Assembly: GCA_030647775.1 (NCBI GenBank) | Contig: JAUSJC010000010.1 | Coordinates: forward strand, 200,718 to 264,717 | Direction of reading: 5' to 3' | Source: Candidatus Curtissbacteria bacterium | GTDB taxonomy: Bacteria > Patescibacteriota > Microgenomatia > Curtissbacterales > GWA2-41-24 | DNA: 64,000 nt | Shown: one piece after another, positions 2,014 to 63,892 of the stretch | Position numbering within the stretch: position 1 is the stretch's first letter | Layout of the letters: each line of letters starts with the position of its first letter | The notes under the pieces: generated by a model | Seen by the model: only the letters and a program-made list of their open reading frames with translations | Told to the model about the DNA's origin: nothing | Database searches by the model: none | Position numbers and translations under genes: made by a program

Positions 2014-3534
2014 ATGCTAGCCAAAGTTACCTCCGCAGCTGTTGTTGGTTTAGATGCCGTTCCTATTACCGTTGAGGTCGATATTGCTTCCCAGGGGTTA
2101 CCAAGTTTTACCATAGTCGGTCTTCCCGATAAAGCCGTTGAAGAATCAAAGGAAAGAGTTAGGGCCGCGCTTAAAAACAGCGGTGCCGATATCCCCCCAA
2201 AAAGGATAACGGTCAATCTTGCCCCGGCAGACTTACCAAAAGAAGGCCCCGCCTATGATCTTCCAATCGCCCTCGGTATTCTAATAGCCAGTGAACAATT
2301 AAAAGCGGATGTCGAAGACTCAATTTTTATTGGCGAACTTTCTCTTGACGGGTCACTGCGCCGAATTTGGGGCGTTTTGCCCTGTACCCTTATGGCCCGC
2401 GACAAAAATTTTAGTAATATTTTCCTTCCTCCGGATAATACTGGAGAAGCCGGGGCTGTCGATAAAATCAGCATTATTGCCCCAAAAAACTTACGCCAGC
2501 TTTTTGATCATTTTGCCACAGACACCAAGATTCCACCTCTAAAATTTAAAAAACAAATCTTTAAAAATATTATTGACGAAGACTTTGATTTTGAAAATAT
2601 TTTAGGGCAGGAAAATGCCAAACGCGCCCTAACTATTGCCGCCGCCGGCGGTCACAACATTTTAATGAAAGGTCCACCCGGAGCCGGCAAAACTCTTATG
2701 GCCAGAAGCTTCACGACTATCCTGCCCAGGTTAACTTTTGATGAAAGCCTTGAGGTGACAAAAATTTATTCTGTTGCCAACCTCTTAAATGCCGAAACCC
2801 CCCAAGTCCTGTCACGTCCGATTCGTAGCCCTCACCATACCACAAGCCATATTGGCTTAATCGGCGGCGGTAATATCCCGCGCCCCGGAGAAATTTCGCT
2901 TGCCCACCGTGGAGTTTTGTTTTTAGACGAATTGCCGGAATTCCCAAGACAAGTCCTCGAAGCCTTAAGACAGCCGATGGAAGATGGGCATATTACCATT
3001 TCCCGTGCCGCCGGGTCTGTCAAATTTCCCTGCCGTTTTACTCTGGTTGCCGCCGCCAACCCCTGTCCTTGCGGCTTTTTTGGTGACGAAACTAGAAATT
3101 GTGTTTGTGCTCCAAGCGCCATCACCCGTTATCAAAAAAGGATCTCCGGTCCAATCTTGGACAGAATCGATATCCATATCACGGTCCCGGCAGTCAAAGT
3201 GGAAAAGCTGACAGGGCAAACAAGGGGAGAGTCAAGCGCAAAGATTCAGGCCCGTGTCCAAAAAGCCCGCGCCCTTCAAGAAAAAAGATTTAAGAATCTG
3301 GCTATTGCCTCAAATGCTGAAATGTCGGCAAAACTGATGAAAAAATATTGTAATCTCGACGATCAGTCAATTCTGCTTTTGAAACAGGCTATTTCCAAAC
3401 TCAATCTTTCCGCCCGTTCATTTCATAGAGTCATTAAAATTGCCCGGACCATCGCCGACCTTGAAGCGTCAATCAAAATAAAATCCAATCATGTTGCAGA
3501 AGCGCTTCAATATCGTCCTGCTGCTGATATTTAA
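2014..3534 (+). CDS. YifB/ComM family Mg-chelatase-like AAA+ ATPase
   Basis: Lon-like N-terminal domain (LPSFTIVGLPDKAVEESKERV), Walker A GPPGAGKT, ChlI-like C-terminal half. The 3' end is duplicated around a repeat element (see findings). Confidence 0.85.
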   Translation: MLAKVTSAAVVGLDAVPITVEVDIASQGLPSFTIVGLPDKAVEESKERVRAALKNSGADIPPKRITVNLAPADLPKEGPAYDLPIALGILIASEQLKADVEDSIFIGELSLDGSLRRIWGVLPCTLMARDKNFSNIFLPPDNTGEAGAVDKISIIAPKNLRQLFDHFATDTKIPPLKFKKQIFKNIIDEDFDFENILGQENAKRALTIAAAGGHNILMKGPPGAGKTLMARSFTTILPRLTFDESLEVTKIYSVANLLNAETPQVLSRPIRSPHHTTSHIGLIGGGNIPRPGEISLAHRGVLFLDELPEFPRQVLEALRQPMEDGHITISRAAGSVKFPCRFTLVAAANPCPCGFFGDETRNCVCAPSAITRYQKRISGPILDRIDIHITVPAVKVEKLTGQTRGESSAKIQARVQKARALQEKRFKNLAIASNAEMSAKLMKKYCNLDDQSILLLKQAISKLNLSARSFHRVIKIARTIADLEASIKIKSNHVAEALQYRPAADI

Positions 3535-3571
3535 AGCGCTTCAAAACCCTGAGTGAAATCGAAGGGTCGCC
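3535..3571. repeat. family A palindromic element (core CCCTGAGYGAARTCGAAGGG), flanked by near-duplicate copies of the yifB 3' end at 3499-3523 and 3572-3594
   Basis: Sequence aagcgcttcaaaaccctgagtgaaatcgaagggtcgcc. Copy 1 is gaagcgcttcaatatcgtcctgc and copy 2 is gaggcacttcaataccgtccgc. Confidence 0.6.
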
Positions 3572-3624
3572 GAGGCACTTCAATACCGTCCGCAAATCGA
3601 AAATTAATCTGATAAAATATACTT

Positions 3625-4245
3625 ATGAAGAAAATCATCATTCTGTTGGTTGCTTCAGTTATCATAATTTTGATCGGGCTTATTTGGTACGCCATCAATA
3701 TCTCTTTCAATCAAGTTCGGCCGGCTACTGCCGAAATTAACAAAAATATCGTCAAAGATCTATCTAAGATCGTCCGTATCCCCGAAGGGATTGCGCCGCC
3801 GATGCAGGATTTTAATCAAACCATTTATTCATGGGAAATGGAAACGCCTGCGGGAGAGGTAACAGGTATTACTTTTAAGTACACGCCATCATTTGCCAGA
3901 AAAGATGACAAAATCATCGCGACTTTAGAAATGCCCGAAAACGGTGACCCGAGTATTTTTAATAAGGTTCTTGAAGCAATTATTGTCGACGAACAGTCAC
4001 TGGCAGCTGCCCGTGATCCCCAAAAAGCGAATCTTGGTGCAAACGGGAAAAGCGGTTACAACTCGATCAAACTGGCCGTTTCGCCAAAATCCGGGCAAAC
4101 GACAAACATTACCTGGGAATTTGAAAAGAAAACCCTTTCCAAAGAATTAAATAGCTCCTATGACCAAATTAATAAAATCCCCAGTTTCGCCTTGAATTTT
4201 TTGTATGGACTACCGGGTTTTATCATTGGTTTACTAAAAGGATAA
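3625..4245 (+). CDS. hypothetical secreted or membrane-anchored protein
   Basis: 206 aa ORF with an N-terminal TM or signal sequence and a hydrophobic C-terminus. Confidence 0.5.
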   Translation: MKKIIILLVASVIIILIGLIWYAINISFNQVRPATAEINKNIVKDLSKIVRIPEGIAPPMQDFNQTIYSWEMETPAGEVTGITFKYTPSFARKDDKIIATLEMPENGDPSIFNKVLEAIIVDEQSLAAARDPQKANLGANGKSGYNSIKLAVSPKSGQTTNITWEFEKKTLSKELNSSYDQINKIPSFALNFLYGLPGFIIGLLKG

Positions 4246-4284
4246 CCAAATTAAACTCGGCTTGAAAGAAGATTTTTGAAGTAG

Positions 4285-4334
4285 AAAAAACCCCCGGAGA
4301 CAATTCTGAAGCCAAAATTATCGTGGGGTTTTTT
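4285..4334. terminator. possible bidirectional terminator: A-run and CCCCC, then GGGG and a T-run
   Basis: aaaaaaccccc ... ggggtttttt sits between convergent genes. Confidence 0.3.
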
Positions 4335-6740: not shown

Positions 6741-7319
6741 ATGTTGATAGATCTTTTAATTTCTAAAGTCAGAGTCAAGGTTCTCGAACTCTTTTTGGGT
6801 AATCCGGACCAGTCCTATCACGTCCGCGATATTGTCAGGCGTGTCGAAGAGGAAATCAACGCCGTAAGGCGTGAGCTGGCCAGGATGGAAAAAATTGGTT
6901 TTTTGGCAAGCGAATGGCGCGCAAACCGCAGGTTCTACTCCGTAAAAAAAGACTTTATCTTCTATTGGGAATTGTTATCAATTATTAATAAGCAATCAGG
7001 CCTCGGCGGCCAAATTATCAAAAACCGCGGCAAACTCGGCAAAATTAAATACGCTATGCTTTCGGGTTCCTTCGTCCGCGGCAAACCGTATAGCCAGAAC
7101 GAAGTCGATCTTTTCATAGTCGGTACAATTATTCTGCCGGAACTGGGCAGTTTAGTTCGTGAAGAGGAAACCAGGCGTGACCGTGAAATTAACTTTACAC
7201 CCATGACAGAAGAAGAATTTAGTTTCCGCAAAAACAGGCGCGATCCGTTTATCATGGGAATCCTTTCCAAGCCCCGGGTTATGTTAATCGGGGAAGAAGA
7301 GGAAATGGTAAAGTTGTAA
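6741..7319 (+). CDS. winged-HTH fused to a minimal nucleotidyltransferase (Pol-beta superfamily)
   Basis: N-terminal wHTH-like region (VLELFLGNPDQSYHVRDIVRRV), then GSFVRGK...NEVDLFIV, which is the GS...[DE]xD NTase signature. Confidence 0.5.
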   Translation: MLIDLLISKVRVKVLELFLGNPDQSYHVRDIVRRVEEEINAVRRELARMEKIGFLASEWRANRRFYSVKKDFIFYWELLSIINKQSGLGGQIIKNRGKLGKIKYAMLSGSFVRGKPYSQNEVDLFIVGTIILPELGSLVREEETRRDREINFTPMTEEEFSFRKNRRDPFIMGILSKPRVMLIGEEEEMVKL

Positions 7320-7320
7320 A

Positions 7321-7466
7321 CCCTGAGCGAACGAAGTGAGTCGAAGGGCTATAGTCCTGAGCTTGTCGAAGGGCTCTAACCTTCTGAACTACTAATCTGC
7401 TAAAATCTTTCTTAGGCCCGCAGTTCTGAGTGAAGTCGAAGGACGAGGACCGCATGGCTTTGTATC
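7321..7466. repeat. cluster of family A palindromic elements plus a family C module (CGCATGGCTTTGTATCATG) abutting the secD start
   Basis: ccctgagcgaacgaagtgagtcgaaggg, tcctgagcttgtcgaaggg, ttctgagtgaagtcgaaggacgaggaccgcatggctttgtat. Confidence 0.6.
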
Positions 7467-8835: not shown

Positions 8836-9726
8836 ATGAACATTATTAAATACAGGAATTGGTTTTTTGCTTTATCACTGGCCATTATTATTCCCGGCCT
8901 TATTGCGCTTGCCCTGTGGCACCTAAAACCCGGAATTGATTTTTCCGGAGGGACTCTTTGGGAAGTAAAAACAAACACTGCGCCCAAAAATCTTCAGGAC
9001 TTTATATCCAAAAATGGAGTAGAGGTATCACAAGTCACCAAAACAAGCCAGGGATCAATTCTTTTGCGCCTTAAAGTCACGGATGACGCAAAGATCAAAG
9101 AGATCAAAGATAAAGTATCTTCAAACATCGGCCCATTTGAAGAAGTAAGGTTAGAAACTGTCGGGCCGGTTATTTCCAAAGAGCTTACTCAAAAAGCCGC
9201 TCTTGCTGTCGGTATTGCGCTTTTAGGTATCGTGCTTTACGTAACTTGGGCTTTTAGAAAATTGGCCAAACCCGCTTCGCCAATTGCTTTTGGGGTATGT
9301 ACAATTATTGCCCTTATCCACGACATCATTGTCGTTGTCGGTATCTTTGCAATTCTTGGTCACTTTTTCGGTGTCGAAGTCGACTCGCTTTTTATTACGG
9401 CCCTTTTGACAGTTCTTGGTTTTTCCGTCCACGATACGATTGTAGTTTTTGATAGGATCCGCGAGAATTTAAGAAAGCACAGTGATTATTCTTTTGAAGA
9501 AGTTGTTAATCACTCACTCCTGCAAACCATTGGCCGTTCTCTCAACACATCATTAACCGTAGTTTTTGTTCTCCTGGCGCTTCTCCTTTTCGGCGGCGAG
9601 TCGATAAAAACTTTCGTCTTAGCGCTTCTAATCGGCATTATTTCCGGGACCTATTCCTCCATCTTCAATGCCGCCCCGCTCCTCGTCGTCTGGTCGGAGT
9701 TTATTAAAAATAAACGCAGATCCTGA
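8836..9726 (+). CDS. secF: protein translocase subunit SecF
   Basis: 296 aa SecF-like topology. Its TGA stop codon lies inside a family A repeat. Confidence 0.85.
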   Translation: MNIIKYRNWFFALSLAIIIPGLIALALWHLKPGIDFSGGTLWEVKTNTAPKNLQDFISKNGVEVSQVTKTSQGSILLRLKVTDDAKIKEIKDKVSSNIGPFEEVRLETVGPVISKELTQKAALAVGIALLGIVLYVTWAFRKLAKPASPIAFGVCTIIALIHDIIVVVGIFAILGHFFGVEVDSLFITALLTVLGFSVHDTIVVFDRIRENLRKHSDYSFEEVVNHSLLQTIGRSLNTSLTVVFVLLALLLFGGESIKTFVLALLIGIISGTYSSIFNAAPLLVVWSEFIKNKRRS

Positions 9727-9741
9727 GTTTATCGAAGGGCA
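9720..9741. repeat. family A element overlapping the secF stop codon
   Basis: gatccTGAgtttatcgaagggc. Confidence 0.5.
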
Positions 9742-9761: not shown

Positions 9762-11108
9762 TTATTTAAGATCAGAAAGTCTACGAGTTAGAAGGTCTTT
9801 CTTATTTTTCTTTGGGTCTTCTTGGACTTCTTCAAAAAGTTTATTCAAAATCTCTCCGACTTTTGGCCCGGGCTTCAGATTAAGCATCTTCATAACGTCA
9901 TTACCGCTAATTTTTAAATCGGCAACCGTAAACGGTTTTTTCAAAACATCCGTTATCTTTTGTCTAAAAAGTTTAAGCCGCCAAGATTCCGGCTGTTGCA
10001 GGCCGCCGCCAAGCCGGTCTCCAACCCGAAGATCCATCATATCCTCGACATACTCCAGTCCCACATTATGAATAAAACGGCGAATTGCCGCGTCCGTCTG
10101 GTTTTCGTTGACCGAAAATTGGTGCCAGCGCACCAAAAGAAATAACTTCTCCTTTTGCTCACGCGATAAATGCAGTCTATCGGCAATTTGCTTAACAATT
10201 CGCCCGCCAACAACTTCGTGATTATAAAAAGTCCGTACGCCTTCTTCCGTAACTTTGGCAACTTTTGCTTTGCCAATATCGTGAAGCATTGTCGCGAGTT
10301 TTGTAATCACGTCTTTGGACGGGCAAAACTTCAGGCTCATTACGCAGTGTGTTCCGACATCGTGAATATGATGCCTCTGCGGACTTTTTTGGGGAACGCT
10401 AAAACACTCGTCAAGCTCCGGCAAAATAACAGCAAGAATTCCGGTCTCTTTCGCCAGAAAAATTCCGTCCGCGCCATTATCACTAGCTACTATTTTAAAA
10501 AGCTCGTCCCTTATTCTCTCACCGGAAATTTTGGAGATCAGCTGCGCGTTTTTGGCGATAGACTTTTGGGTTTTTTCTTCTATCTTAAATCCCAAACCCG
10601 TTGCAAACCTTATTGCTCTTAAAAGTCGGAGTGCGTCCTCGCTAAACCGCGCGTCAGGTTCTCCGACAGTTCTAATAATTCTATCTTTAAAATCTTCAAC
10701 TCCGCCGTAAGGATCGACTGGCGTCTCATCTAGTTTACCCTGAGCGAAGCGAAGGGCTACGGCATTAATTGTAAAATCCCGCCTTGCCAGGTCTTCTTCC
10801 AAACTCTTCCCCCAGGCAACTTTTTCGGGATGACGTGAGTCTTCATATTTGCCCTCGGTTCTGTATGTGGTGATTTCGGCAATCGTCTTGCCGCTTTTGG
10901 CAATTCCCACAGTGCCAAAACGGTTGTTGTAAAAAGCTTCAGGAAATATCTTTAAAATTTTCTCGGGCGTGGCGTTGGTCGTCAAATCGAAGTCGGAAAT
11001 ATTTTTCCCAGCCAAAACATCCCTTACGCCGCCGCCTACCAAAGCTGCTTCATATCCGGCTTTTTCAATCTTATCCAGAATTTGTTTTACGTCAGTGTTA
11101 ATAGTCAT
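9762..11108 (-). CDS. cca: CCA-adding tRNA nucleotidyltransferase with HD domain
   Basis: GGGVRD head motif, HD domain, 448 aa. It contains an in-frame family A insertion (ALRFAQGKL) at 10736-10760. Confidence 0.85.
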   Translation of the reverse strand: MTINTDVKQILDKIEKAGYEAALVGGGVRDVLAGKNISDFDLTTNATPEKILKIFPEAFYNNRFGTVGIAKSGKTIAEITTYRTEGKYEDSRHPEKVAWGKSLEEDLARRDFTINAVALRFAQGKLDETPVDPYGGVEDFKDRIIRTVGEPDARFSEDALRLLRAIRFATGLGFKIEEKTQKSIAKNAQLISKISGERIRDELFKIVASDNGADGIFLAKETGILAVILPELDECFSVPQKSPQRHHIHDVGTHCVMSLKFCPSKDVITKLATMLHDIGKAKVAKVTEEGVRTFYNHEVVGGRIVKQIADRLHLSREQKEKLFLLVRWHQFSVNENQTDAAIRRFIHNVGLEYVEDMMDLRVGDRLGGGLQQPESWRLKLFRQKITDVLKKPFTVADLKISGNDVMKMLNLKPGPKVGEILNKLFEEVQEDPKKNKKDLLTRRLSDLK

Positions 11109-11117: not shown

Positions 11118-11185
11118 CGTATGTCATGCTGAACTCGTTTCAGCATCTAGATCCCGAAACAAGTTCGGGATGATTAAATGTTTGG
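11118..11185. repeat. two short palindromes in the cca-recJ intergenic region (tgtcatgctgaactcgtttcagcatc; gatcccgaaacaagttcgggatga)
   Basis: Perfect inverted repeats. The first is family B-like. Confidence 0.4.
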
Positions 11186-16246: not shown

Positions 16247-17569
16247 ATGTCTAAAGTCATAGATCCCAAGCGCAGTCGAGTCATCGAGACCCTGAGTTTA
16301 TCGAAGGGTCGAAGGACCACAGGTCCTGAGCGCAGTCGAAGGATTCGCGTTCGATACGCCCCTTCGCCTACAGGCATTCCGCACATCGGTAATATAAGAA
16401 CCGCCCTTTTCAATTACCTATTTGCAAAAAACCAAAATGGCGATTTTCTACTGCGCATCGAAGATACCGATCAAAACCGGTTAATACCCGAATCCGTCGA
16501 AAAAATCAAAGAAAGCCTCGAGCTCCTGGGCCTAAAGTGGGATGAAGAGGAACACCAATCAAAACGGTTGGAAATCTACAAAAAGCATTTGGACATTCTT
16601 AAGGGAAAAGATTTGGCATATGAAGATGACGGTGCCTGGCGTTTTAAAGTTGAAAAGGGCAAAACACTGCAGTGGGATGATGTCGTTCATGGACAGGTTA
16701 AATTTTCATCAGACGTTATCGAAGACTTCATCATCATAAAATCCGACGGATTTCCCACTTATCACTTTGCTTCTGTTGTAGACGATCACGATATGCAGAT
16801 TTCCCACGTTTTCCGCGGCGATGAATGGATTTCTTCAACACCAAAACACCTACTAATATACCAGGCGTTTGGATGGGAACCGCCAAAGTTTGTCCACTTG
16901 CCGCCAATTCTCGGGGCTGACCATAAAAAACTTTCCAAGCGCGAAGGCGCCAAATCGGTAATTGAATACATAGAAGAAGGATATCTTCCGGAGGCGATTG
17001 TTAACTTTTTAGCATTTCTGGGTTGGTCACCCAAAGATGATAGAGAAATTTTCAGTCTTGAGGAGCTCACTCGCGAATTTTCCCTCGACCGCATCAACAA
17101 AAACAGCCCAATTTTTAATTTGGAAAAATTAAATTGGTTCAATAGTCAGTGGCTCCGAAGACTTCCACAAAAAGAATTATCCAAAAAAATCAAAAAAGCT
17201 TTTCCAAGATATGATCCAAAAATTGTCGGGAAACTCACCCCCCTTATCCAGAAAAGGATTACAAATGTTAACGATTTTCCAAAACTTTGCAATTTCTTTT
17301 TTGAAGTGCCAAAACCTTTAGATTCGGTTGTCGAAAAAGGTGTTCTGTCAAAAGTAGCCGAGAATTTTGTTAAAGTTTCGTGGAATGCGGAAGAAATTAA
17401 AAATTCGATAGAAGATTTTGCCCAAAGTCAAAAAGTCGACAAGAAAGATTTAATAGTCAGCATAAGAAATATTGTGGCAGGCAGACCTGTTACGCCCCCG
17501 CTTTACGAGTCGTTAGAAATATTAGGTAAAGATGAAACTATTGCAAGGCTCAAAAAATATGTCAGCTAG
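16247..17569 (+). CDS. gltX: glutamyl-tRNA synthetase (or non-discriminating GluRS) with an N-terminal extension built from repeat elements
   Basis: HIGN motif (PTGIPHIGNIRTALF) and KMSKS motif (KLSKR). The first roughly 35 aa (MSKVIDPKRSRVIETLSLSKGRRTTGPERSRRIRV) are encoded by two family A elements at 16268-16345. Confidence 0.85.
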   Translation: MSKVIDPKRSRVIETLSLSKGRRTTGPERSRRIRVRYAPSPTGIPHIGNIRTALFNYLFAKNQNGDFLLRIEDTDQNRLIPESVEKIKESLELLGLKWDEEEHQSKRLEIYKKHLDILKGKDLAYEDDGAWRFKVEKGKTLQWDDVVHGQVKFSSDVIEDFIIIKSDGFPTYHFASVVDDHDMQISHVFRGDEWISSTPKHLLIYQAFGWEPPKFVHLPPILGADHKKLSKREGAKSVIEYIEEGYLPEAIVNFLAFLGWSPKDDREIFSLEELTREFSLDRINKNSPIFNLEKLNWFNSQWLRRLPQKELSKKIKKAFPRYDPKIVGKLTPLIQKRITNVNDFPKLCNFFFEVPKPLDSVVEKGVLSKVAENFVKVSWNAEEIKNSIEDFAQSQKVDKKDLIVSIRNIVAGRPVTPPLYESLEILGKDETIARLKKYVS

Positions 17570-18224: not shown

Positions 18225-19379
18225 ATGAAACTTTTTAATAGTTCCGCCAAAAAAGAGGAAGCTGTTGATCTTTCAAAACCCATCGGTATCTATGTCTGCG
18301 GCGTAACCCCATACGATACAACTCACCTCGGTCACGCTTTTACATTCATAACTTACGATGTTTTGGTCCGCTATCTAAGATTTCTTGGTGCCAAAGTTGC
18401 TTATGTGCAAAATGTTACCGATATTGACGACGTCATTTTAATCAAGTCAACATCCATTGGAGTTAATTGGAAAAAACTTGGGGAAAAAGAGACTAAAAAC
18501 TACCTTGCCAATATGGATTCGTTAAATATGCTTCGTCCGGATTTTTATCCTCTTGCCACCGACCACATTACTACGATGATACGAATCATCGTAGTACTTT
18601 TAAAAAGGGGTTTCGCATACGAGAAAAATAAATCCGTATACTTCAGTATCAAGTCTTACAAAAAATTTGGCCAGCTTTCTAAATATGGTTATGACGCCAT
18701 GCTGCAAATTGCCAATGACCGCGGCAACTTCCCGCTTGACCCCGATAAAAATGACCCTCTGGATTTTGTGCTCTGGCAGGCGCAGAAACCTGGTGAACCG
18801 GCTTGGAATTCACCATGGGGAAAGGGTCGTCCCGGTTGGCATATTGAATGTTCGGCTATGTCCATAAAATATCTGGGCCCGACTGTAACAATCCATGGCG
18901 GGGGAGAGGATTTAATTTTTCCTCACCATGAATGCGAAATTGCCCAAAGTGAAAATTACACAGGGAAGCAGTTTGTAAAAATCTGGATGCACACCGCTAT
19001 GGTTTATTGTCAAAACAAAAAAATGAGCAAATCTCTTGGCAACATGATTTTTGTCCACGACCTCTTAAAAAAATATTCGGCAAACGAAATTCGCCTTTTT
19101 CTCCTAATGCACCACTGGCGCCGTTCTTGGAATTATCAGGAGTCGGATCTTAAAACTGCAGAAATTTTAGCCAAAATATTTGAGTCTCAATCTAAAGATG
19201 GGAATTTAAAAAAAGACGAGCTTAAAAAACTAATCCCGGATTTTTTCCATGCCCTGGATGATGATCTTAACACCCCAGATGCAATTACCGCCCTCGACAA
19301 CTTCGCTAAATCAAACGCGCAAAATAAAGGCTCGGTTATTAAAAATTGCTCTGAAATTCTTGGACTGCGGTTTAGCTGA
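18225..19379 (+). CDS. cysS: cysteinyl-tRNA synthetase
   Basis: HIGH motif (HLGHA) and KMSKS motif. It contains an in-frame family F palindrome at 18565-18597 encoding TMIRIIVV. Confidence 0.85.
   Translation: MKLFNSSAKKEEAVDLSKPIGIYVCGVTPYDTTHLGHAFTFITYDVLVRYLRFLGAKVAYVQNVTDIDDVILIKSTSIGVNWKKLGEKETKNYLANMDSLNMLRPDFYPLATDHITTMIRIIVVLLKRGFAYEKNKSVYFSIKSYKKFGQLSKYGYDAMLQIANDRGNFPLDPDKNDPLDFVLWQAQKPGEPAWNSPWGKGRPGWHIECSAMSIKYLGPTVTIHGGGEDLIFPHHECEIAQSENYTGKQFVKIWMHTAMVYCQNKKMSKSLGNMIFVHDLLKKYSANEIRLFLLMHHWRRSWNYQESDLKTAEILAKIFESQSKDGNLKKDELKKLIPDFFHALDDDLNTPDAITALDNFAKSNAQNKGSVIKNCSEILGLRFS
18565..18597. repeat. family F perfect palindrome (TACTACGATGAT-acga-ATCATCGTAGTA) inside the cysS CDS
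   Basis: Identical to the element at 56161-56196, which overlaps the lysS stop. Confidence 0.7.
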
Positions 19380-20636: not shown

Positions 20637-20672
20637 AACGTTATTATAGCAGAGTTTGAAGCTAAATGAGGG

Positions 20673-20743
20673 CTGCGGGACTAGGATTCGAACCTAGATA
20701 AACGGATCCAGAATCCGTTGTCCTACCATTAGACGATCCCGCA
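20673..20743 (-). tRNA. tRNA-Gln (anticodon CUG)
   Basis: Minus-strand cloverleaf: U1:A72 acceptor TGCGGGA/TCCCGCA, D-arm GTCTAATGGTAGGAC, anticodon arm ACGGA-TTCTGGA-TCCGT, T-arm CTAGG-TTCGAAT-CCTAG. No encoded CCA. Confidence 0.75.
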
Positions 20744-20746
20744 AAG

Positions 20747-21013
20747 CTACCTACTTAATTGCTTTAAACTATTTTCAATCTTTCCTTTTAAGACTTCTCT
20801 CCCGTAACCAGATTTGTAAAACTTTTCTTGTTTAAGTGCGTCCTCTTCAGTTAAAAATGCTTCATAAAATACAAGTTTATACGGCCTATTATCTCTAGTA
20901 TATTTGCCTCCAATTCCGTCGTTATGCTCTCTAAACCTGCGCCTTAAATCATTTGTTGATCCTGTATATAATCTTTTATTCTTCAGACTTAATAAAACAT
21001 AAACGTAATACAT
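20747..21013 (-). CDS. small GIY-YIG nuclease-domain protein (COG2827-like)
   Basis: MYYVYVLLSLKNKRLYTGSTNDLRRRFREHN... Start taken at the Met of MYYVYVL. A partial tRNA-Gln 5' half lies immediately upstream. Confidence 0.65.
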   Translation of the reverse strand: MYYVYVLLSLKNKRLYTGSTNDLRRRFREHNDGIGGKYTRDNRPYKLVFYEAFLTEEDALKQEKFYKSGYGREVLKGKIENSLKQLSR

Positions 21014-21083
21014 AAAAGTCCGTTGTCCCTGCCTCATCGGCAGGTCGCCGAAGAGGCGACTACCATTAGACGATCCCGCAAAG
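21014..21083 (-). repeat. partial copy of tRNA-Gln (positions -3 to 31) interrupted by two small hairpins; abuts the GIY-YIG gene start
   Basis: Minus strand reads CTTTGCGGGATCGTCTAATGGTA, then the hairpin GTCGCCTCTTCGGCGAC, then the hairpin CTGCCGATGAGGCAG, then GGACAACGGAC, then TTTT-ATG. Confidence 0.6.
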
Positions 21084-21320
21084 TTAAATCCTTCTTTTCA
21101 AATATGCTCTACCAAAACCTGTTTTTAATTGTTTTTCTCTTCATATAGCTTTTTCCTTAGACAAACACGCTTCGTAGTAAATCAAAATTAATGGAACTCT
21201 ATTTTTTGTTGAGACAACTAGTTCTTGATTGTGAGCTTTTACTCTTTTTTCTAGATTGTCAGTCCAACCTGTGTATAAATTTCCATCCGTTTTGCTTTTT
21301 AACACATAGGTAAAGTACAT
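21084..21320 (-). pseudogene. second GIY-YIG nuclease-domain gene carrying an in-frame TGA (at 21141-21143) in a conserved position
   Basis: MYFTYVLKSKTDGNLYTGWTDNLEKRVKAHN...EACLSKEKAI*REKQLKTGFGRAYLKRRI aligns with paralogue 1 through the stop. The start ATG follows the D-arm-like GTCTAATGGT. Confidence 0.5.
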
Positions 21321-21335
21321 ACCATTAGACCTGCC

Positions 21336-21400
21336 CGCAATGCTACGCTCGCCAGAAACGCTGTATCTACTGCGAGCTGGCATAGCGTTGCAGGCGGGCG
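21336..21400. repeat. family D element (CCTGCCCGCAATGCTACGC ... ATAGCGTTGCAGGCGGG) with a 33 bp internal insertion
   Basis: Compact copies lie at 40369-40404 inside copA and inside the tRNA-like element at 50062-50105. Confidence 0.5.
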
Positions 21401-28837: not shown

Positions 28838-29000
28838 CAACCGACCGTCATTCTGGAGCGAAGCGATAGAATCTTGTTTACCATTCCGAAGTCTTGACGA
28901 AGGATGGTCATTGCGAGCAAAGCGAAGCAATCTCTCTTATATTGTTCGAGCTTGTCGAGAACTTTCCTTTTTGTCATTCTGGCCATTCGGCCTTGAGCTC
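28838..29000. repeat. cluster of family B elements (GTCATTCTGGAGCGAAGCG..., GTCATTGCGAGCAAAGCGAAGCAATC) and a family E element (GTTCGAGCTTGTCGAGAAC)
   Basis: Intergenic between nrdJ and the peptidase S51 gene. Confidence 0.55.
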
Positions 29001-29041
29001 ATGGTCGAAAGACTTGACCAGAATCTGCTACAATTTCCCTT

Positions 29042-44330: not shown

Positions 44331-44440
44331 AACCCCAATCCGAACCATTCGGATTATAGACCCGCAGTCCTGAGTCGCGAAGGACGAGGATCGCATGGCA
44401 CTGTATATTCGGACTAACAATTCGGATAAATTCGGGTGTA
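44331..44440. repeat. family A element plus family C module (CGCATGGCACTGTAT) upstream of lon
   Basis: cccgcagtcctgagtcgcgaaggacgaggatcgcatggcactgtatattcgg; ccgaaccattcgg palindrome. Confidence 0.55.
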
Positions 44441-44450: not shown

Positions 44451-46874
44451 GTGGCAATATTCATTGATCCGCAAAAACCCAGAATTAAAAACGAACTCCC
44501 GATAGTTCCGCTTAGGGATACTGTTGTTTTCCCGTCTTCCATGGTTCCAATTACCGTTGGTCGTCCTAAGGTTAAGCTTGGACTCGATAGTGCTTGGGCC
44601 ACCGACCACTTGGCTGTTTTTGTCGCCCAGAAAAATCCGCGCATCGAAAACCCGGCCCCGGGCGACATCTATTCCGTCGGCACCGTCGGTTTAATCCGTC
44701 GGCTTTGGAAGGTCGATAATGAATATAATCTGGCCGTCGAGGGCATCAGCCGCGTTTACCTTAAAGAATTCTCCCAAATCGATCCATATCTTGCTGTCAA
44801 AGTCGAAGAAATTCCCGAACTCACCCAAAAAACCGAGGAAGTCGAAGCGCTTTTTAGAAATATCCTGGCTAAAATCAAGAAATTCGGCGAACTAGGCGGT
44901 ACCCTCACCCTTGAATCTTCGATCCATATCTTTTCAACGGATGACCCGAACCAGCTTGTTAATATTGTCGCCGCCTCCATCGATCTTAAAACTGCCGATA
45001 AACAGCAAATTCTGGAAATGGTCGATACCAAAGCCAGGCTCGACAGGCTTTCGGAACTTTTAACGCGCGAAATCCGAATCTTAGAAATTTCCTCAAAAAT
45101 CGACACCGAAACCCAGGAAAGGGTCGGCAAAGTTACCAAAGATGCAATCCTGCGCGAGAAAATGAAATCTATCGAAAAAGAGCTGGGTGAAGATGAAGAT
45201 GGTCAGGAAATTGCCCAGTTCAGGAAAAAAATCAAAGAAGCCCAAATGCCAACCGATGTCAGGACTAAAGCCGACCGTGAGCTGATTCGTCTTGCCAAAA
45301 TGTCGTCTTATAACCCCGAATCATCCTATATCCGCACCTATTTGGAGTGGCTGGTCGACCTGCCTTGGCAGATCAAGGACAAGAAAAAATCAACCGATGT
45401 CGAGCTGGCCGCCAAAATTTTAGAGGAAGACCATTACGGTTTGCCAAAAGTTAAGGAAAGAATTTTGGAATATTTTGCCGTCCATAAGCTAGTCGGCAAA
45501 ATTAAAGGACCAATCTTGTGCTTTTACGGTCCGCCCGGCGTCGGTAAAACATCAATCGGCAAATCAATTGCCCGGGCGCTTGACCGTAAATTTATAAGGG
45601 TATCTTTAGGCGGCATCCACGATGAAGCGGAAATTCGCGGCCACAGAAGAACCTATGTTGGTGCTATGCCGGGCAGAATAGTCCAGGGTATTAAAAACGC
45701 CGGCACCAAAAACCCGGTCTTTATGCTGGACGAAATCGATAAAATCGGTGCCGATTTCCGCGGCGATCCGTCATCGGCGCTCCTGGAGGCTCTTGACCCG
45801 GAACAAAATAATTCTTTCTCCGACCATTATCTGGAAGTTGCCTACGACCTTTCCGATGTTTTGTTTATCGCAACCGCCAACATTTTGGATACTATTCCGC
45901 CGGCGCTTCGCGACAGGCTTGAGGTAATCAGTTTCCCAGGTTACACCGAAGACGAAAAATTCCACATCGCCAAGCGCTTCCTGATCCCCAAACAGCTTGA
46001 AGCCCATGGTTTAAATAAGGAGAAAGTGGAAATAACGGATAGTACCTTAAAAGACATCATTTCCCATTACACCAGGGAAGCAGGTGTTAGGGAATTGGAA
46101 AGGGAAGCGGCAGCGATCTTTAGAAAAGTAGCTAAAAAATTGGCCACAGCCAAAGTAAAGACCAAAATCGCGATTAGTCCAAAACAGCTCCATGCTTATC
46201 TTGGAGCGGCTAAATTTACAAGAGCCATTGCCGAAGAAAAGGATGAAATTGGAATGACAACCGGTCTCTCGGTAACTTCCGCCGGCGGCGAAATCCTCTT
46301 TGTTGAAGTAACACCTATGCCCGGCAAAGGCCTGTTAATTTTAACCGGCCAGCTTGGTGATGTTATGAAGGAATCGGCTCAAGCCGCACTTTCCTATGTG
46401 CGTTCCCGCGCCAAAGTTTTGGGTATTCCCGAAAACCTTTTTGCCAAAAGCGATATTCATATCCACGTTCCGGAAGGCGCCGTTCCCAAGGAAGGCCCGT
46501 CTGCCGGTATCGCCATCACCACAGCGCTTGTTTCTGCTCTTACAAAAATTCCCGTCCGCCGTGAAGTCGGCATGACCGGAGAAGTCACCCTGCGCGGCCG
46601 GGTTTTGGAAATCGGCGGCCTTAAAGAAAAAACCCTGGCAGCTCATAGGGCGGGTCTAACAACAATTATTATTCCAAAACAAAATGCCAAAGACCTGGAA
46701 GATATCCCTAAAAATGTTAAGCGCGACCTGCAGTTTATTTTGGCCGAGCACATGGACGAAGTCTTAAAAGTGGCACTGACTAAATCTCTTCCTAAAGAAA
46801 AAGCCGCGGAGTCTCCAAAGCTTCCTGTCCGTCATCCTGAACTTGTTTCAGGATCTTCCCAACCAACTAATTAA
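44451..46874 (+). CDS. lon: ATP-dependent protease Lon
   Basis: GTG start. LON N-domain, Walker [11 protein letters not shown] dyad (PKEGPSAG). The C-terminal tail ([10 protein letters not shown]) is encoded by a family B element at 46829-46857. Confidence 0.9.
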
Positions 46875-49053: not shown

Positions 49054-49106
49054 CCCTGTCATTGCGAGCGAAGCCCCGCCTGCCGGACGGGCAGGGAAGC
49101 AATCTC
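49054..49106. repeat. family B element (CTGTCATTGCGAGCGAAGC ... GCAATC) with an internal hairpin
   Basis: Lies between convergent genes. It may double as a terminator. Confidence 0.5.
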
Positions 49107-49173
49107 AACAATTTAACAATAAGAGAGCTTATTGCTCGTAAACTCGCAATGGAGCAATTTAACAATTTGCCTT

Positions 49174-50036: not shown

Positions 50037-50044
50037 ATTGTTTT

Positions 50045-50138
50045 GGCTCCTACATGGATGACCTGCCCGCCATAGCTTGCGCATCAGGCGCTAGCAGGCG
50101 GGGAACGCTAGGTCCTAGGCCACTAGACGATGGAGCCA
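50045..50138 (-). other. tRNA-like pseudo-element: canonical acceptor and D-arm, then a family D palindromic block in place of a normal anticodon/T region
   Basis: Minus strand: GGCTCCATCGTCTAGTGGCCTAGGACCTAGCGTTCC, then [CCGCCTGCTAGCGCCTGATGCGCAAGCTATGGCGGGCAGG], then TCATCCATGTAGGAGCCA. The ends pair as an acceptor stem; no canonical T-arm. Confidence 0.4.
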
Positions 50139-50259
50139 AAGCCGTGCTGATTATAACTGAACCTAAATAACATAACAATATTATTGACTGGCAATTTGCA
50201 AAGATTTATGATAATATCTCTGTTCGCGTAGAGCGGTATAATCATTTTATGGCAAAAAT

Positions 50260-54715: not shown

Positions 54716-56176
54716 ATGGAGTCGCTGGAGAAAATTCGTCAAACTCGCCTCGAAAAGCTGGAAAAGATTAGGAAACTTGGCATCAATCCCTTCCCTGCCA
54801 AAAGCGCCAAAAAACAAGACGTCGCCACTTGCCTCAAATCAGCAGGCAAGATTGTCCAAACTGCCGGCCGCGTCATGGCCATCCGCGGCCACGGCGGCTC
54901 AAGCTTTATGGACTTGGTCGACGAGTCCGGCAAAATCCAACTTTTTTTCTCCGCCGACAAACTATCCACAATTAACCGTCAACTTTTAACTCTTCTGGAT
55001 ACCGGTGATTTTATTCAGGTAGAGGGGAAAGTTGACAAAACTGCCGCGGGTCAACTGACAATTTTTGCCGACGGCTTTAAACTTCTCACCAAATCTATTC
55101 GCCCGGTCCCCGCAACTTTTTACGGTTTAAAGAACCCAGAAACGCGACTGCGAAAAAGATATTTGGATTTGATAGCCAACCCCGAGGTTCATGACCTTTT
55201 TGTCAAAAAAGCAAAATTTTGGACCAGTGTCAGGCAGTTTTTAATAGAGGACGGATTTTTGGAAGTAGAAACTCCGGCCCTCGAACTTATTCCCGGCGGC
55301 GCAGACGCAACCCCCTTTATCACCCACCACAATGCTTTGGATGCCGATTATTACTTAAGAATCTCGCTGGAGCTTTACCAAAAAAGGTTGCTTGTCGGCG
55401 GCTTTGAAAAAATTTTTGAAATCGGGAAAATCCTCAGAAACGAAGGCATCGATACCGAACACTTGCAAGACTATCTCCAGATGGAATTTTACTGGGCGTA
55501 TGCCGACTACGTTGCTCTCATCGATTTTGTCGAAAAATATTACCGCTTCATTGTCAAAGAAACCTTTGGGTCAACAAAAACAAAAAGCGGTGAAATCGAA
55601 TTAGATTGGGGAAAACCATGGGAGAAAGTCGATTACATCGATGCTTTTAAGGTCGAAACCGGTCTGGATCTTTCTAAAAATCCTAAAGTCGACGAGCTTT
55701 TAAAACTGGCAGACAAAGTCGGTGCCAAGCCAAACAAGAAATTAGCAGAGGGGAGACTCATTGATTTGATTTACAAAAAGACAATTCGGCCAAAACTCAT
55801 CCAGCCATCCCTCCTTATTAATCATCCGGTTGCCGTATCCCCGCTGGCCAAAAGGGATGAAAAAAATCCCAATATTGTCCAAAGGATCCAGGTTTTGGCG
55901 GCTGGCACGGAAATCGGTAATGGCTGGTCGGAACTTAATGATCCGATAGACCAAGCTCAAAGATTTGAAAAACAGCAGGAAATGAGAAAAGAAGGTGATA
56001 CAGAAGCCCAAATGTACGATCACGATTTTGTCGAAGCTTTAGAATATGGTATGCCGCCCGCAGCCGGTTTTGGACTTTCCCAAAGATTATTTGCCGTGCT
56101 CGTCGACAAACCCATCCGCGAAACAGTCTTTTTCCCAACAATAAGAGGGGAAAATGAGACCATTACACTACGATGA
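54716..56176 (+). CDS. lysS: lysyl-tRNA synthetase (class II)
   Basis: N-terminal OB fold and class II motifs (FRNEG, GGFEKIFEIG, GLGIDR-like region). The stop codon lies inside a family F palindrome. Confidence 0.85.
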   Translation: MESLEKIRQTRLEKLEKIRKLGINPFPAKSAKKQDVATCLKSAGKIVQTAGRVMAIRGHGGSSFMDLVDESGKIQLFFSADKLSTINRQLLTLLDTGDFIQVEGKVDKTAAGQLTIFADGFKLLTKSIRPVPATFYGLKNPETRLRKRYLDLIANPEVHDLFVKKAKFWTSVRQFLIEDGFLEVETPALELIPGGADATPFITHHNALDADYYLRISLELYQKRLLVGGFEKIFEIGKILRNEGIDTEHLQDYLQMEFYWAYADYVALIDFVEKYYRFIVKETFGSTKTKSGEIELDWGKPWEKVDYIDAFKVETGLDLSKNPKVDELLKLADKVGAKPNKKLAEGRLIDLIYKKTIRPKLIQPSLLINHPVAVSPLAKRDEKNPNIVQRIQVLAAGTEIGNGWSELNDPIDQAQRFEKQQEMRKEGDTEAQMYDHDFVEALEYGMPPAAGFGLSQRLFAVLVDKPIRETVFFPTIRGENETITLR

Positions 56177-56196
56177 TACGAATCATCGTAGTGGGA
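56161..56196. repeat. family F perfect palindrome (CACTACGATGAT-acga-ATCATCGTAGTG) containing the lysS stop codon
   Basis: A near-identical copy lies inside cysS at 18565-18597. Confidence 0.7.
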
Positions 56197-56203
56197 GTAC
56201 GAA

Positions 56204-56800
56204 ATGAAAAAAGAAACACTTAAAAAAATTCTCAAAGTTTTCTTAACTTTGCAGTGGGCCAAAGAACTGCCGCGCCAGGGTTTTATCGCTTTGGGTTTTA
56301 AAAGAAACGAAGCCGATTCCGTTGCCGCCCATTCCTGGACGACAGCCATGCTGGTTTATTTCCTTGGCAGCGAAATGAAAAAACAAGGGCAAAAAATCGA
56401 TGTCGATAAAGCAGTCAAAATGGCGATGTTTCATGATATGGCCGAAACCATTGTCGGGGACGTCGGCACTTTCGTTAAAGCTATGGCCAAAGGCGCTTTT
56501 GCCCCGATTGAAGAAGAAGGCCTGAAATGGCTCGTCAAAGACCTGCCGTCAAATAAAGAAGTTATCGCGCTTGTCGAAGAATATATGGCTAGGAAAACCC
56601 TGGAAGCCCGTCTTTGCAAAGTCGCCGATAATCTGGATGCTCTGGCTCAGGCCAAAGGTGTTCCCGGCGCCCAAAGCGCGCTAAAGTATTTTAAAGAGGT
56701 TTACCATATCACCAAAATCCCATGGCACAAAGACGCCGTTGGAATGATTTTAAAAGACGAAGTGGAGCCCGAACGCTCTTGGCAGGAAAATAGTCACTAA
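56204..56800 (+). CDS. HD-domain phosphohydrolase (YfbR-like)
   Basis: HSWTTAML ... FHDMAETIVGDV HD motif. Confidence 0.65.
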   Translation: MKKETLKKILKVFLTLQWAKELPRQGFIALGFKRNEADSVAAHSWTTAMLVYFLGSEMKKQGQKIDVDKAVKMAMFHDMAETIVGDVGTFVKAMAKGAFAPIEEEGLKWLVKDLPSNKEVIALVEEYMARKTLEARLCKVADNLDALAQAKGVPGAQSALKYFKEVYHITKIPWHKDAVGMILKDEVEPERSWQENSH

Positions 56801-56805
56801 TCGCC

Positions 56806-56910
56806 CCTCCCTGTCATTCTGGAGCGAAGGGACAGAATAAGCTCTCTTATTCTGGGGACGAGCGAAGTCGAAGACTCTGAGTGAAATCGAAGAGCGAGGA
56901 CACCAGAATC
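56806..56910. repeat. family B element (CTGTCATTCTGGAGCGAAGGGACAGAAT) followed by family A elements
   Basis: Intergenic, between the HD-domain gene and serS. Confidence 0.55.
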
Positions 56911-58165: not shown

Positions 58166-58194
58166 CATGTCATTCTGAACTTGATTCAGAATCT
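58166..58194. repeat. family B palindrome (GTCATTCTGAACTTGATTCAGAATC)
   Basis: Immediately after the serS stop. Confidence 0.5.
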
Positions 58195-61414: not shown

Positions 61415-61452
61415 ACCCCTAAGTTTTTGCTACAATTGCTCAAAGCAACCGG

Positions 61453-63000: not shown

Positions 63001-63033
63001 CTTTTAGGCTCCTTTGCCTAATACTAGGTTCAT

Positions 63034-63729
63034 ATGTCTTTCTTGCCCCGAAAAGGTTTTAGTCACTTAGTCATCTTAATTCTTGTCGCGATTTTAGGTA
63101 CAGTCTTCTTTCTAAGCCCAATAAAAAAATACCTATATATGGCATATCAAAATGCCGGTATGGCTGTCGGCATCAATCTAAATAATATTGCTACCGCAAG
63201 CTATGTCAATTTCATCAAATCCCAAAGCGGCCAGTATGAAAACGCCAGTACCGCAATTTGGCTAAACCAAAAAATCGCTTACAATAATTTCTTGGCCGAA
63301 GGCCCTGAGCGAAGTCGAAGGGCCGACGCGAACGTTTTGGGTAATCAATCTCCCGCTGATCCCAATAAATGGATTGATATTAATTTATCTGAACAAAGAC
63401 TTTATATGAAGCAAGGTGCCAGCACCGTTGCTAGTTTTTTAGTTTCTACCGGTAAATGGGCGCCGACCCCGACAGGCACTTTTGCCATCTGGACAAAGTT
63501 AAGATATACCACAATGGCAGGTGGAAACCAGGCGCTCGGTACTTACTATAACCTTCCAAATGTCCCCTACGTAATGTACTTTTACCAGGGTTATGGAATG
63601 CACGGGGCTTATTGGCATAACAACTTTGGCCAGCGCATGAGTCACGGCTGTGTCAACATGAGGCCGGAAGAAGCCGGCATTGTCTTCAACTGGGCAGATG
63701 TCGGCACCCGCGTAGTTGTCCACGATTAA
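63034..63729 (+). CDS. L,D-transpeptidase (YkuD family)
   Basis: GYGMHGAYWHNNFGQRMSHGCVNM catalytic region. In-frame family A insert AEGPERSRRADA at 63301-63323. Confidence 0.75.
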   Translation: MSFLPRKGFSHLVILILVAILGTVFFLSPIKKYLYMAYQNAGMAVGINLNNIATASYVNFIKSQSGQYENASTAIWLNQKIAYNNFLAEGPERSRRADANVLGNQSPADPNKWIDINLSEQRLYMKQGASTVASFLVSTGKWAPTPTGTFAIWTKLRYTTMAGGNQALGTYYNLPNVPYVMYFYQGYGMHGAYWHNNFGQRMSHGCVNMRPEEAGIVFNWADVGTRVVVHD

Positions 63730-63740
63730 ATTTTAGATAA

Positions 63741-63892
63741 CCCTGAGTATACCGTCAGCTTTTCAGCTGAGGCGACCTGCTGATATGTCTTCCTCTCCGT
63801 TGGAGAACGACATATATCAGATTGTCCGGAGGACAAGGCTGATATATAATCCCCCTTAGATCCCGTTCACGGGATCGCATGGCACTGTATAT
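63741..63892. repeat. family A element, other palindromes and a family C module (GATCGCATGGCACTGTATATAATG) running into the next gene start
   Basis: ccctgagtataccgtcagcttttcagctgagg ... cccgttcacgggatcgcatggcactgtatataatggac. Confidence 0.5.

Follow-up and report, generated by a model that had tools for sequence, protein, structure and literature searches.

A stretch of 64,000 nucleotides (the window) from a metagenome-assembled genome (MAG) of Candidatus Curtissbacteria raises the question of how short palindromic repeats belonging to several families came to lie both between genes and, in frame, within the genes of housekeeping enzymes. Genomes of the candidate phyla radiation (CPR; Patescibacteria), to which this host belongs, are tiny and usually called poor in mobile DNA; within the 64 kb studied here, which have a G+C content of 40 to 47%, at least 12 housekeeping proteins contain recent repeat-derived peptides. 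Affected are, among others, ribonucleotide reductase (NrdJ), the CCA-adding enzyme, Lon, SecF, and three aminoacyl-tRNA synthetases, one of which (CysS) carries a native palindrome and no insert. The repeats are most probably non-autonomous hairpin elements of the repetitive extragenic palindromic (REP) type, which were recently copied in this Curtissbacteria lineage and filtered by selection wherever they fell into coding DNA. The copies are recent, lineage-specific, and in frame; their sites have been reused, and the hairpins covary and nest. With them, a kind of element known before from Rickettsia, Opitutus, and other bacteria gains a further host group and families that are in part new.

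The orthologous DNA of five related genomes, together with sets of loci around nrdJ (20 GTDB species representatives) and around lysS (80 metagenome loci), was compared with the window. Loci L001 and L002 (NrdJ 83% identical to that of the window) are independent ENA and JGI assemblies, L145 and L149 come from one NCBI MAG (YifB 90% identical), and L147 and L148 from one Logan run (YifB 92% identical). The best 120 NrdJ homologues were all from Curtissbacteria or Patescibacteria. The census of repeats and the search for transposases covered the 64-kb window. Pfam confirmed the genes for YifB/ComM, the CCA-adding enzyme, GltX, CysS, NrdJ, a PduO-type adenosyltransferase, CopA, Lon, LysS, a YkuD L,D-transpeptidase, and SecD/SecF. 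The family names A, B, D, and F of a preliminary description of this DNA are retained, and a further family G is added. Coordinates are window positions, and elements are on the + strand unless given as − or without strand.

Relatives with about 83 to 92% protein identity lacked the elements of the window at almost all sites tested. In gltX, an 87-nt insert follows directly after the ATG (16250 to 16345); it consists of two family A hairpins and a mini-hairpin and encodes 29 amino acids (…SRVIETLSLSKGRRTTGPERSRRI…). As far as the ATG, the upstream DNA is identical; L001, L148, and L149 lack the insert. A family A hairpin with its flank (SRVIETLSLSKG; 31729 to 31761), 91% identical to the gltX copy, lengthens the N-terminus of open reading frame (ORF) 31714 by 30 nt relative to L001; peptides spanning the junctions of the inserts include ...IADPERSRRVVDD... 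and ...ETLSLSKGRR.... In the PduO gene, two GTCAT-tagged hairpins inverted to each other (32751 to 32828, without strand; …RRSNLDSDYKRDRFASLAMT…) add 63 nt (21 amino acids) compared with L001. The corresponding loop is empty in 12 orthologues and filled with other inserts in three, giving four different inserts across four lineages. Clean in-frame insertions, of the kind that the preliminary description had expected orthologue alignments to reveal, were present at gltX, PduO, and nrdJ site 2 (see below), and absent at copA, cca, and cysS. Its proposal that insertions survive only in frame and reshape loops and termini agrees with the clean differences at these three sites, at ORF 31714, and at the end of lysS. 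All peptides that it named are read through in frame, as confirmed by translation, and every coding copy is free of stops. The inserts are taken to be translated because their hosts are intact single-copy essential genes, and because gltX has no alternative start.

The nrdJ gene contains the most informative sites. Site 2 (27427 to 27455) is a family A hairpin encoding GPERSRRGQ and adding 27 nt relative to L001. It is located directly after an invariant YDK, where most homologues are empty and the window protein reads PATGPERSRRG. Other homologues carry, at the same codon boundary, family D sequences (PARNASHSDAGG, PARNATQIVADG), PARRSL..GEGG types, or other hairpins, so that across homologues four different families occur at one codon. 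Site 1 (27072 to 27095), also a family A hairpin (DPERSRRV) whose stems covary across loci, is common to the window and L001, missing from many other homologues, and corresponds to a 15-residue insertion relative to the Thermotoga maritima NrdJ structure (where PDB 1xje shows a gap). Between zero and four units of the type (D)PE[RQ]SR[RS]V, decayed copies among them (PDEKGRV, TKKDHSI), occupy the loop following LSKFV across 120 NrdJ homologues. The same site 1 element was found at the same position in the independent ENA and JGI assemblies of a relative, which excludes an assembly artefact, raised earlier as a possible refutation, for this site. A third region, the C-terminal linker (28437 to 28608, −), contains two 43-nt repeats with 98% identity (28437 to 28479 and 28566 to 28608), each with an antisense A-like hairpin (NGPLRPLSEASHTN), in a low-complexity segment that is variable among homologues.

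In the AlphaFold2 model of NrdJ, site 1 lies in coil between a strand-helix element (380 to 388) and helix 414 to 434, site 2 lies in a low-confidence coil (505 to 530), and the C-terminal repeats form a disordered linker. The predicted local distance difference test (pLDDT) values are 56 to 59 and below 50 at the two inserts, compared to 89 to 94 in their flanks, and below 30 in the linker. Together with the gap against PDB 1xje, this places the inserts in coil between conserved secondary structure elements, as had been anticipated. The pattern of the NrdJ loops is what a high insertion pressure filtered by selection would give, and in two loops, that of NrdJ after YDK and one in PduO, separate lineages independently acquired hairpins of different families.

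The repeats are present at the coordinates given in the preliminary description, and their number is far above chance expectation. Perfect hairpins with a stem of at least 7 bp numbered 89 in the window versus 38 to 51 in shuffled sequences, and the family A core, with up to three mismatches, was matched five times (at 3547, 16324, 27074, 27431, and 63303) versus none in 100 shuffles. A relaxed family A motif returned 13 copies on the + strand and three weak ones on the − strand, the relaxed-motif copies including those at 7358, 7427, 9724, 10741, 16293, 31745, and 56878. In family A, the conserved loop GAGCGAAGTCGA is enclosed by a short stem that covaries. The literal consensus given earlier for family B was absent from the window even at three mismatches; B-like copies arranged as NGTC-AT stem-GAGCGAAGCGA-stem, with a stem of 5 to 6 bp and a loop of 11 to 13 nt, are present at 28846, 28906, 32750 (the PduO copy), 49057, and 56812. 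The Lon tail, formerly assigned to family B, belongs to family G, which has an 8-bp stem and a 5-nt loop (copies at 11122, 43090, 43126, 46830, and 58168). Families G and B share an unpaired C/T/G-GTC tag, an AT-first stem, and a CTN end, and tagged perfect stems of at least 7 bp occurred seven times in the window versus zero to two times in shuffles. Family F comprises two identical 26-nt palindromes (18570 and 56167). The GC-rich family D is present as an exact copy at 40370, a split copy at 21330 to 21400, and a variant at 50060 to 50110, in agreement with its reported presence in frame in copA, beside a GIY-YIG gene, and in a tRNA-like element. Hairpins nested in the loops of other hairpins were found at 49057 to 49107, 21330 to 21400, and 28972 to 29025. 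Grouping all perfect hairpins de novo according to their loops was not discriminating.

Folding energy supported the hairpins of family F, of family G (z of −6.4 for the dimer at 11122 and −4.3 for the Lon tail), of family D (−2.95 in copA and −5.1 for the split copy), and of the PduO composite (−2.4). The hairpin nature of family A was assessed by covariation, using 42 sites from the window and Curtissbacteria loci that were picked by the loop GAGCGAAGTCGA alone with up to two mismatches. At 24 of these, at least three contiguous base pairs flank the loop, where less than one such site is expected; the stem variants include CCCT/AGGG, TCCT/AGGA, CACT/AGTG, TCCC/GGGA, TAGT/ACTA, and GTTC/GAAC. 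In a fixed 6-bp helix, 68% of the cells pair compared with 50.5% in shuffles, and the covariation score was 0.497 versus 0.212 for shuffled sets (0 of 500 as high) and 0.09 to 0.22 with partners slid. G·T and A·C mismatches are equally frequent in the stems (7 versus 8), which does not separate a constraint on RNA from one on DNA. Family A is oriented 22:2 with the nrdJ strand; most genes are on that strand, so that transcription and replication are inseparable here. Direct reading of the sequence shows the antisense orientation to be stop-free in all frames, whereas one sense frame contains TGA; the bias is therefore not a stop codon effect. The base triplet preceding the stem was AAG, CAG, or GAG in 17 of 24 cases, and GTAG in none. 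Motifs of the GCGAAGC type, which form extraordinarily stable DNA mini-hairpins (PMC13037366), are present in the repeat loops.

The family A loop, with unrelated stems, also occurs in unrelated viral (phage) contigs with 38 to 73% G+C. A scan of viral contigs with the 14-mer TGAGCGAAGTCGAA gave 126 matches, most of which are due to chance; only the 33 with flanking complementarity (at least three extra base pairs, versus about two matches expected) are meaningful. One IMG/VR contig (L113:300-5000, IMGVR_UViG, 49% G+C) carries four exact and two relaxed family A loops with short stems, each preceded by TCGGT, in short spacers of consecutive minus-strand genes and antisense to these genes.

At the 3′ end of yifB (3499 to 3607), a new gene end, a partial repeat, a family A hairpin, and a displaced ancestral end follow one another. 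The in-frame new end (3499 to 3534, ...AEALQYRPAADI before the stop) gives the protein the tail AADI, a partial third repeat (AGCGCTTCAA, 3535 to 3544) precedes the hairpin (3546 to 3567), and the downstream copy (3572 to 3607) encodes EALQYRPQIEN plus stop, followed by TCTGATA.AAT as in relatives. All 120 YifB homologues end in ...AEALQYRPQ[IVQ][ED][NS]; from these ends and the shared 3′ flank, the downstream copy is the ancestral terminus. The block is missing from L145, L146, and L147. The preliminary description had seen here a duplication with a different downstream C-terminus, which is correct, and had read it as a target-site duplication, which is not borne out: the copies are an imperfect duplicate of about 20 to 36 nt, 85% identical over 20 nt, with only four synonymous differences over AEALQYRP. 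The repeat is a hairpin-associated duplication of the gene end, with no short identical target-site duplication.

Family F likewise required a partial revision. Its perfect palindrome is indeed present in cysS (18569 to 18596, TTMIRIIVV) and in the element that supplies the lysS stop, as described, but the cysS copy is not an insertion. The helix that it encodes can be aligned gap-free with E. coli CysS (1li5), no length change was seen at this position in 120 homologues, and HITxMIRIIxVL is widespread. The window arms are ACTACGATGAT-ACGA-ATCATCGTAGT; L148 (4088-4180) has the same arms around an exactly inverted 4-nt loop (TCGT) that still encodes Ile-Arg, while L149 (10313-10405) has ACTTCAATGAT-ACGA-ATCATTGAAGT, again perfect, through two compensatory double changes that replace Thr/Val by Ser/Glu. 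Residue pairs across homologues (S/E, T/V, P/G, and also E/S) conform to what the palindrome dictates in 15 of 23 cases versus 3.2 expected. The gap-free alignment and the compensatory changes of the arms show that this palindrome is native and maintained; either its structure is selected or the arms correct each other. At the junction of lysS and an HD gene, by comparison, a 43-nt insert with the family F palindrome (56158 to 56200) provides the lysS stop and is located between the direct repeats GAAAATGA (56150 to 56157) and GAAATGA (56201 to 56207), whereas nine of 10 relatives have an insert-free ATGA stop/start overlap. Since the lysS copy has the stem of the window lineage, the cysS palindrome was probably its source and was likely copied once. 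At the same junction, a LysS relative (L157:1250-1500) has a C-terminal extension of about 45 residues derived from other hairpin repeats (…SVPRDSRSSQRQ before the stop).

Copies elsewhere in the window occupy the same kinds of position, i.e., immediately past a stop codon, within a spacer or coding sequence, or in another hairpin's loop, and the intergenic ones are mostly located just 3′ of genes in sense orientation. Two family A hairpins directly follow the stop of ORF 6741-7319 (7320 to 7375), a 56-nt block that is missing from L145. At the end of secF (9716 to 9741), a family A hairpin provides the stop codon, as noted earlier (TGA at 9724 to 9726, within CCTGAG); SecF of L149 has a different end and no hairpin. 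The spacer between cca and recJ contains a dimer of CGTC-type (family G) hairpins (11122 to 11172, without strand) that is missing from L149, and the spacer between nrdJ and a peptidase S51 gene, 206 nt long versus 21 nt in L001, contains at least four hairpins (28846 to 29025; two of family B, one A-like, and one of family B with nested hairpins). A CGTC-type hairpin with a GGTC tag, a 9-bp stem, a 4-nt loop, and a CTA tail lies antisense near the end of ORF 33637-34134 (34058 to 34084, −). The C-terminal tail of a Lit protein (ORF 42497-43168) is encoded by a dimer of CGTC-type hairpins (43090 to 43151, without strand); the Pfam Lit domain stops at residue 170, and orthologues align only to about residue 192. 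The C-terminal tail of Lon includes RHPELVSGS, encoded by a family G hairpin (46830 to 46855), and is unrelated to the Lon tails of L009, L024, and L012. A family B hairpin with another nested in its loop is located at 49057 to 49107, one B-type hairpin clustered with two A-type ones upstream of serS (56812 to 56900), a lone CGTC-type hairpin downstream of serS (58168 to 58193), and a family A hairpin (GPERSRRA) in the linker of the L,D-transpeptidase upstream of its YkuD domain (63297 to 63327). Two more coding copies, a family A hairpin antisense to cca (10737 to 10757, ALRFAQGKL) and a family D hairpin in the N-terminal linker of CopA (40370 to 40405, PARNATHSVAGG), are considered below. 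No common target motif was found among the empty sites of relatives, and flank duplications vary from none through 3 to 4 nt (e.g., TAA) and 7 nt (GAAATGA) to more than 20 nt (yifB).

The tagged hairpins resemble the CGTC-tagged REPs, one of two REP superfamilies (Di Nocera, De Gregorio & Rocco 2013, BMC Genomics 14:522; PMC3733652). These feature a CGTC/TGTC tag (often TGTC or CCTC), an AT-first stem of 8 to 9 bp, a loop of 4 to 5 nt, and a 3-nt CCA tail, with exceptions in loop length noted; they occur mostly as inverted dimers without an associated transposase, in tens to thousands of copies per genome, and in five phyla, mostly in alpha-Proteobacteria (PMC3733652). Intragenic copies are known from Rickettsia conorii (RPE-4 and RPE-6), Sphingomonas, Erythrobacter, and others, in genes including those for glycyl- and isoleucyl-tRNA synthetases, DnaE, and UvrA, and REP ends can supply stops; more than 70 intragenic REPs of the GTAG type are tabulated for Opitutus terrae (PMC3733652). 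Their peptide signatures VIPAKAGI, RHPGGGRNL, and ..AGMT (PMC3733652) are those made by GTC-AT... reading frames. In the window, 12 hairpins are tagged, with TGTC in eight, CGTC in two, and GGTC in two. The stems of family G are AT-first with 8 bp (9 bp at 34058) and the loops have 5 nt (4 nt at 34058), as in the CGTC definition, whereas family B is AT-first with only 5 to 6 bp and a loop of 11 to 13 nt; the 3-nt tail is CTA, CTT, CTC, or CTG in 11 of the 12 and not CCA. In tag, stem, and loop, family G therefore falls within the CGTC REP definition, and family B represents a long-loop variant. Further shared features are the inverted dimers, the lack of a transposase in the window, copies in genes including those for tRNA synthetases, ends that supply stops, and the signatures VI.., RH.., and ..MT, exemplified by RHPELVSGS in Lon and ..SLAMT in PduO. 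The differences lie in the patescibacterial host, the CTN tail, the long family B loop GAGCGAAGCGA, and the high share of copies in housekeeping genes. [quoted passage not shown] The latter class was rejected, as the units of 20 to 45 nt have flank repeats of 0, 3 to 4, 7, or more than 20 nt, compared to the fixed target-site duplication and the size of about 50 to 500 bp of MITEs.

Rickettsia palindromic elements (RPEs; Ogata et al. 2000, 2002; summarised in PMC10969869 and PMC3733652) are selfish and lie in frame in unrelated housekeeping genes of a small genome; RPE-1 has about 100 to 150 bp and encodes 30 to 50 amino acids, and RPE-4 and RPE-6 are CGTC REPs. A review covers both classical RPEs and MITEs that lie in frame (PMC10969869). 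In-frame insertion into housekeeping genes and tolerance in surface loops are shared with the window, whereas single units are smaller than RPE-1 (20 to 45 nt, 7 to 15 amino acids; largest composites 21 to 29 amino acids), and several structurally different families coexist. REPs of the GTAG type and REP doublets forming hairpins (REPINs) are linked to REP-associated tyrosine transposases (RAYTs; Nunvar 2010, PMC2817692; Bertels & Rainey 2011, PMC3116915), and the RAYT-associated REP of Coxiella is GTAGGTTGGGCTGAGCTTGCGAAGCCCAAC (PMC2817692). Family A shares with the former the short hairpin with an unpaired 5′ tag and the clusters downstream of genes, and with the Coxiella REP GTAGGTTGGGCTGAGCTTGCGAAGCCCAAC the loop type CTGAGC..CGAAG; it differs in having xAG rather than GTAG and in the many copies within genes of the window. 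Neither the window nor the relatives' annotated loci contained a RAYT (IS200-like Y1) gene. Elhai et al. reportedly described, in 2008, small dispersed repeats, which are mobile hairpin units of about 21 to 27 nt in heterocystous cyanobacteria that have no known enzyme and are said to insert into genes and, by nesting, into other repeats; sequences and host differ, and the comparison is a lead rather than a test. In fungal mitochondria, GC clusters, double-hairpin elements, and byps are G+C-rich hairpins that spread in an A+T-richer organelle genome; they can occupy variable loops and lie in frame within protein genes. The ribosome skips byps, which need not preserve the frame. The coding copies of the window, unlike byps, all keep the frame and are stop-free, and translational bypassing or removal of the inserts at the RNA level was set aside for this reason. 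Literature searches on palindromic or in-frame repeats in CPR bacteria found no describing paper, and those on repeat-coded peptides (PERSRR, LSLSKG, and others) returned nothing relevant.

In the scenario of REP-type copying that we consider most probable, selection would purge coding insertions that break the frame, add a stop, or hit a structured part of the protein; survivors would hence be found in surface loops, linkers, and N- or C-termini, translated as 7 to 30 extra residues, and the few permissive loops would be hit over and over in different lineages. We infer that selection causes this placement. The spread itself probably proceeds on single-stranded DNA hairpins, either by an enzyme acting in trans or by copying during replication or repair, as suggested by the lack of a fixed target duplication and of a nearby transposase: no ORF of the window has a transposase domain, and none was found in about 80 kb of annotated loci of relatives. 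Several observations weigh against this account. The cca site differs from L149 mostly by replacement of a variable loop, with a net gain of 3 nt and no clean indel, and at the copA site the close orthologues L003 and L013 have unrelated sequence, again without a clean indel, so that from the alignments these two copies cannot be separated from loop replacement. The NrdJ model is of limited quality (mean pLDDT 61). Folding energies of the family A and B hairpins are no better than those of shuffles (z of −0.6 to +0.6), which is why covariation, shown for A, was used instead. The case for mobility is a comparative one, of presence against absence, copy number and cognate enzyme are judged from 64 kb only of a contig of at least 527 kb, and no one enzymatic mechanism sits neatly with flank duplications whose length ranges from 0 to more than 20 nt.

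In an alternative, no dedicated transposon is involved: very stable mini-hairpins stall or misalign replication or repair, template switching copies any hairpin of sufficient stability to new sites along with varying amounts of its flank, the arms of quasi-palindromes correct each other, and families are lineages of successful hairpins that native palindromes can seed. The native cysS palindrome, kept perfect by compensatory double changes and by a flipped loop, and its counterpart at the lysS junction with the lineage-specific stem fit this idea, although only one native palindrome was copied, with no further case, and the 5-nt flank common to both copies is weak evidence. It would also accommodate the variable flank duplications (none, TAA, GAAATGA, more than 20 nt at yifB), the right arm GCCAG of nrdJ site 2, which is the inverse of a pre-existing left flank CTGGC as in L007, the loops with GCGAAGC-type motifs of stable mini-hairpins (PMC13037366), the CGTC REPs without dedicated transposase (PMC3733652), and the equal numbers of G·T and A·C mismatches, from which selection acting on a single RNA strand is not apparent. 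Unpaired conserved tags (N-GTC with a CTN tail) and a loop kept across phyla and phages look, however, like protein recognition sites, and the 22:2 orientation is not predicted by such copying alone. The cysS-to-lysS copy and the flank duplications therefore lean towards templated copying and the tags and loop towards protein recognition, and on balance we regard the former as an unlikely explanation of the whole. An equally unlikely, broader form would have spread depend on structure rather than sequence, any very stable DNA mini-hairpin, native coding ones included, being copyable by template switching or by a structure-specific nuclease, for which the small GIY-YIG proteins beside hairpins at the tRNA-Gln locus would be candidates. 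If true, it would explain transposase-free CGTC-type REPs, freely covarying stems, nesting, and variable duplications.

The hairpins could instead be selected functional modules, i.e., stabilisers or terminators of mRNA, nuclease or gyrase sites, or arginine-rich peptide loops, rather than selfish DNA. Such roles would agree with the position of most intergenic copies downstream of genes in sense orientation, as reported for REPs (PMC3733652), with stems maintained by compensatory change, with a loop kept in distant genomes and phage contigs, and with a cysS palindrome conserved over long times. Modules of this kind would not be expected to be missing from close relatives at almost every tested site, to belong to different families by lineage within one protein loop, or to decay as PDEKGRV and TKKDHSI did at NrdJ site 1; moreover, no T-run follows the hairpins, an Rfam scan of the whole window at gathering scores found only two tRNAs, and a scan of two hairpin clusters at E values up to 10 gave nothing but noise. 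We consider this explanation improbable. The classical MITE, with terminal inverted repeats, target-site duplications, and a DDE transposase, is more improbable still, and hardly to be reckoned with at yifB or elsewhere. The PduO composite does have inverted GTCAT...ATGAC ends, and direct repeats flank the lysS insert and the yifB hairpin, but the units are below the usual MITE size, the duplication length differs from site to site with none at several, the yifB copies are 85% identical over 20 nt with synonymous differences only and an ancestral copy downstream, and a transposase is lacking in the 64 kb as in the roughly 80 kb of annotated relatives.

Hairpin repeats are a visible source of protein length variation in Patescibacteria, and they are a hazard for annotation and phylogeny through repeat-derived peptides, altered start and stop codons, and marker proteins with hypervariable loops. 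Related metagenome assemblies amount to a natural experiment, in which the same loops are filled, empty, or occupied by another family; comparing filled with empty loops could give rates of insertion and loss for REP-type elements.

A conserved leader of about 45 nt (CCCGCAGTyCTGAGT..CGAAGGACGAGGAyCGCATGGCwyTGTAT) is located just upstream of secD (7417-7466), just upstream of lon (44360-44410), and at the end of the window (63872-63892), and two of the copies are identical over 21 nt of its second half. The leader may represent a promoter module or a 5′ untranslated region with a hairpin. Where the window has the secD leader, L145 carries a different hairpin. Cumulative GC skew drops steadily over positions 1-64000 (C > G on the + strand), and about three-quarters of the genes are on the + strand.

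Two tRNA loci also contain family D sequences. At 50040-50140 (− strand), a tRNA-half remnant lies directly upstream of tRNA-Glu; it comprises the acceptor 5′ strand, the D-arm, and the start of the anticodon stem, followed by a 39-nt family D-like hairpin (50060 to 50110, +) and the acceptor 3′ end. ARAGORN, with introns allowed, called no tRNA in 50040-50140. The architecture is that of the tRNA-Gln locus minus the GIY-YIG gene. At that locus (20670-21400, − strand), two small GIY-YIG ORFs (20747-21037 and 21141-21323, the latter with an internal stop) come before tRNA-Gln(CTG), each with a copy of the tRNA 5′ part in front of it. One copy consists of tRNA positions 1-21, a 32-nt double hairpin, and positions 22-31; the other, a 5′ fragment adjoining the GIY-YIG ORF, is joined to a family D hairpin that a nested hairpin interrupts (21330 to 21400, +). 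It looks as if a minimal GIY-YIG homing unit had inserted serially into the anticodon-stem region and the tRNA had been regenerated. A copy in L009:569-748 is 92% identical in protein, although NrdJ there is only 70% identical.

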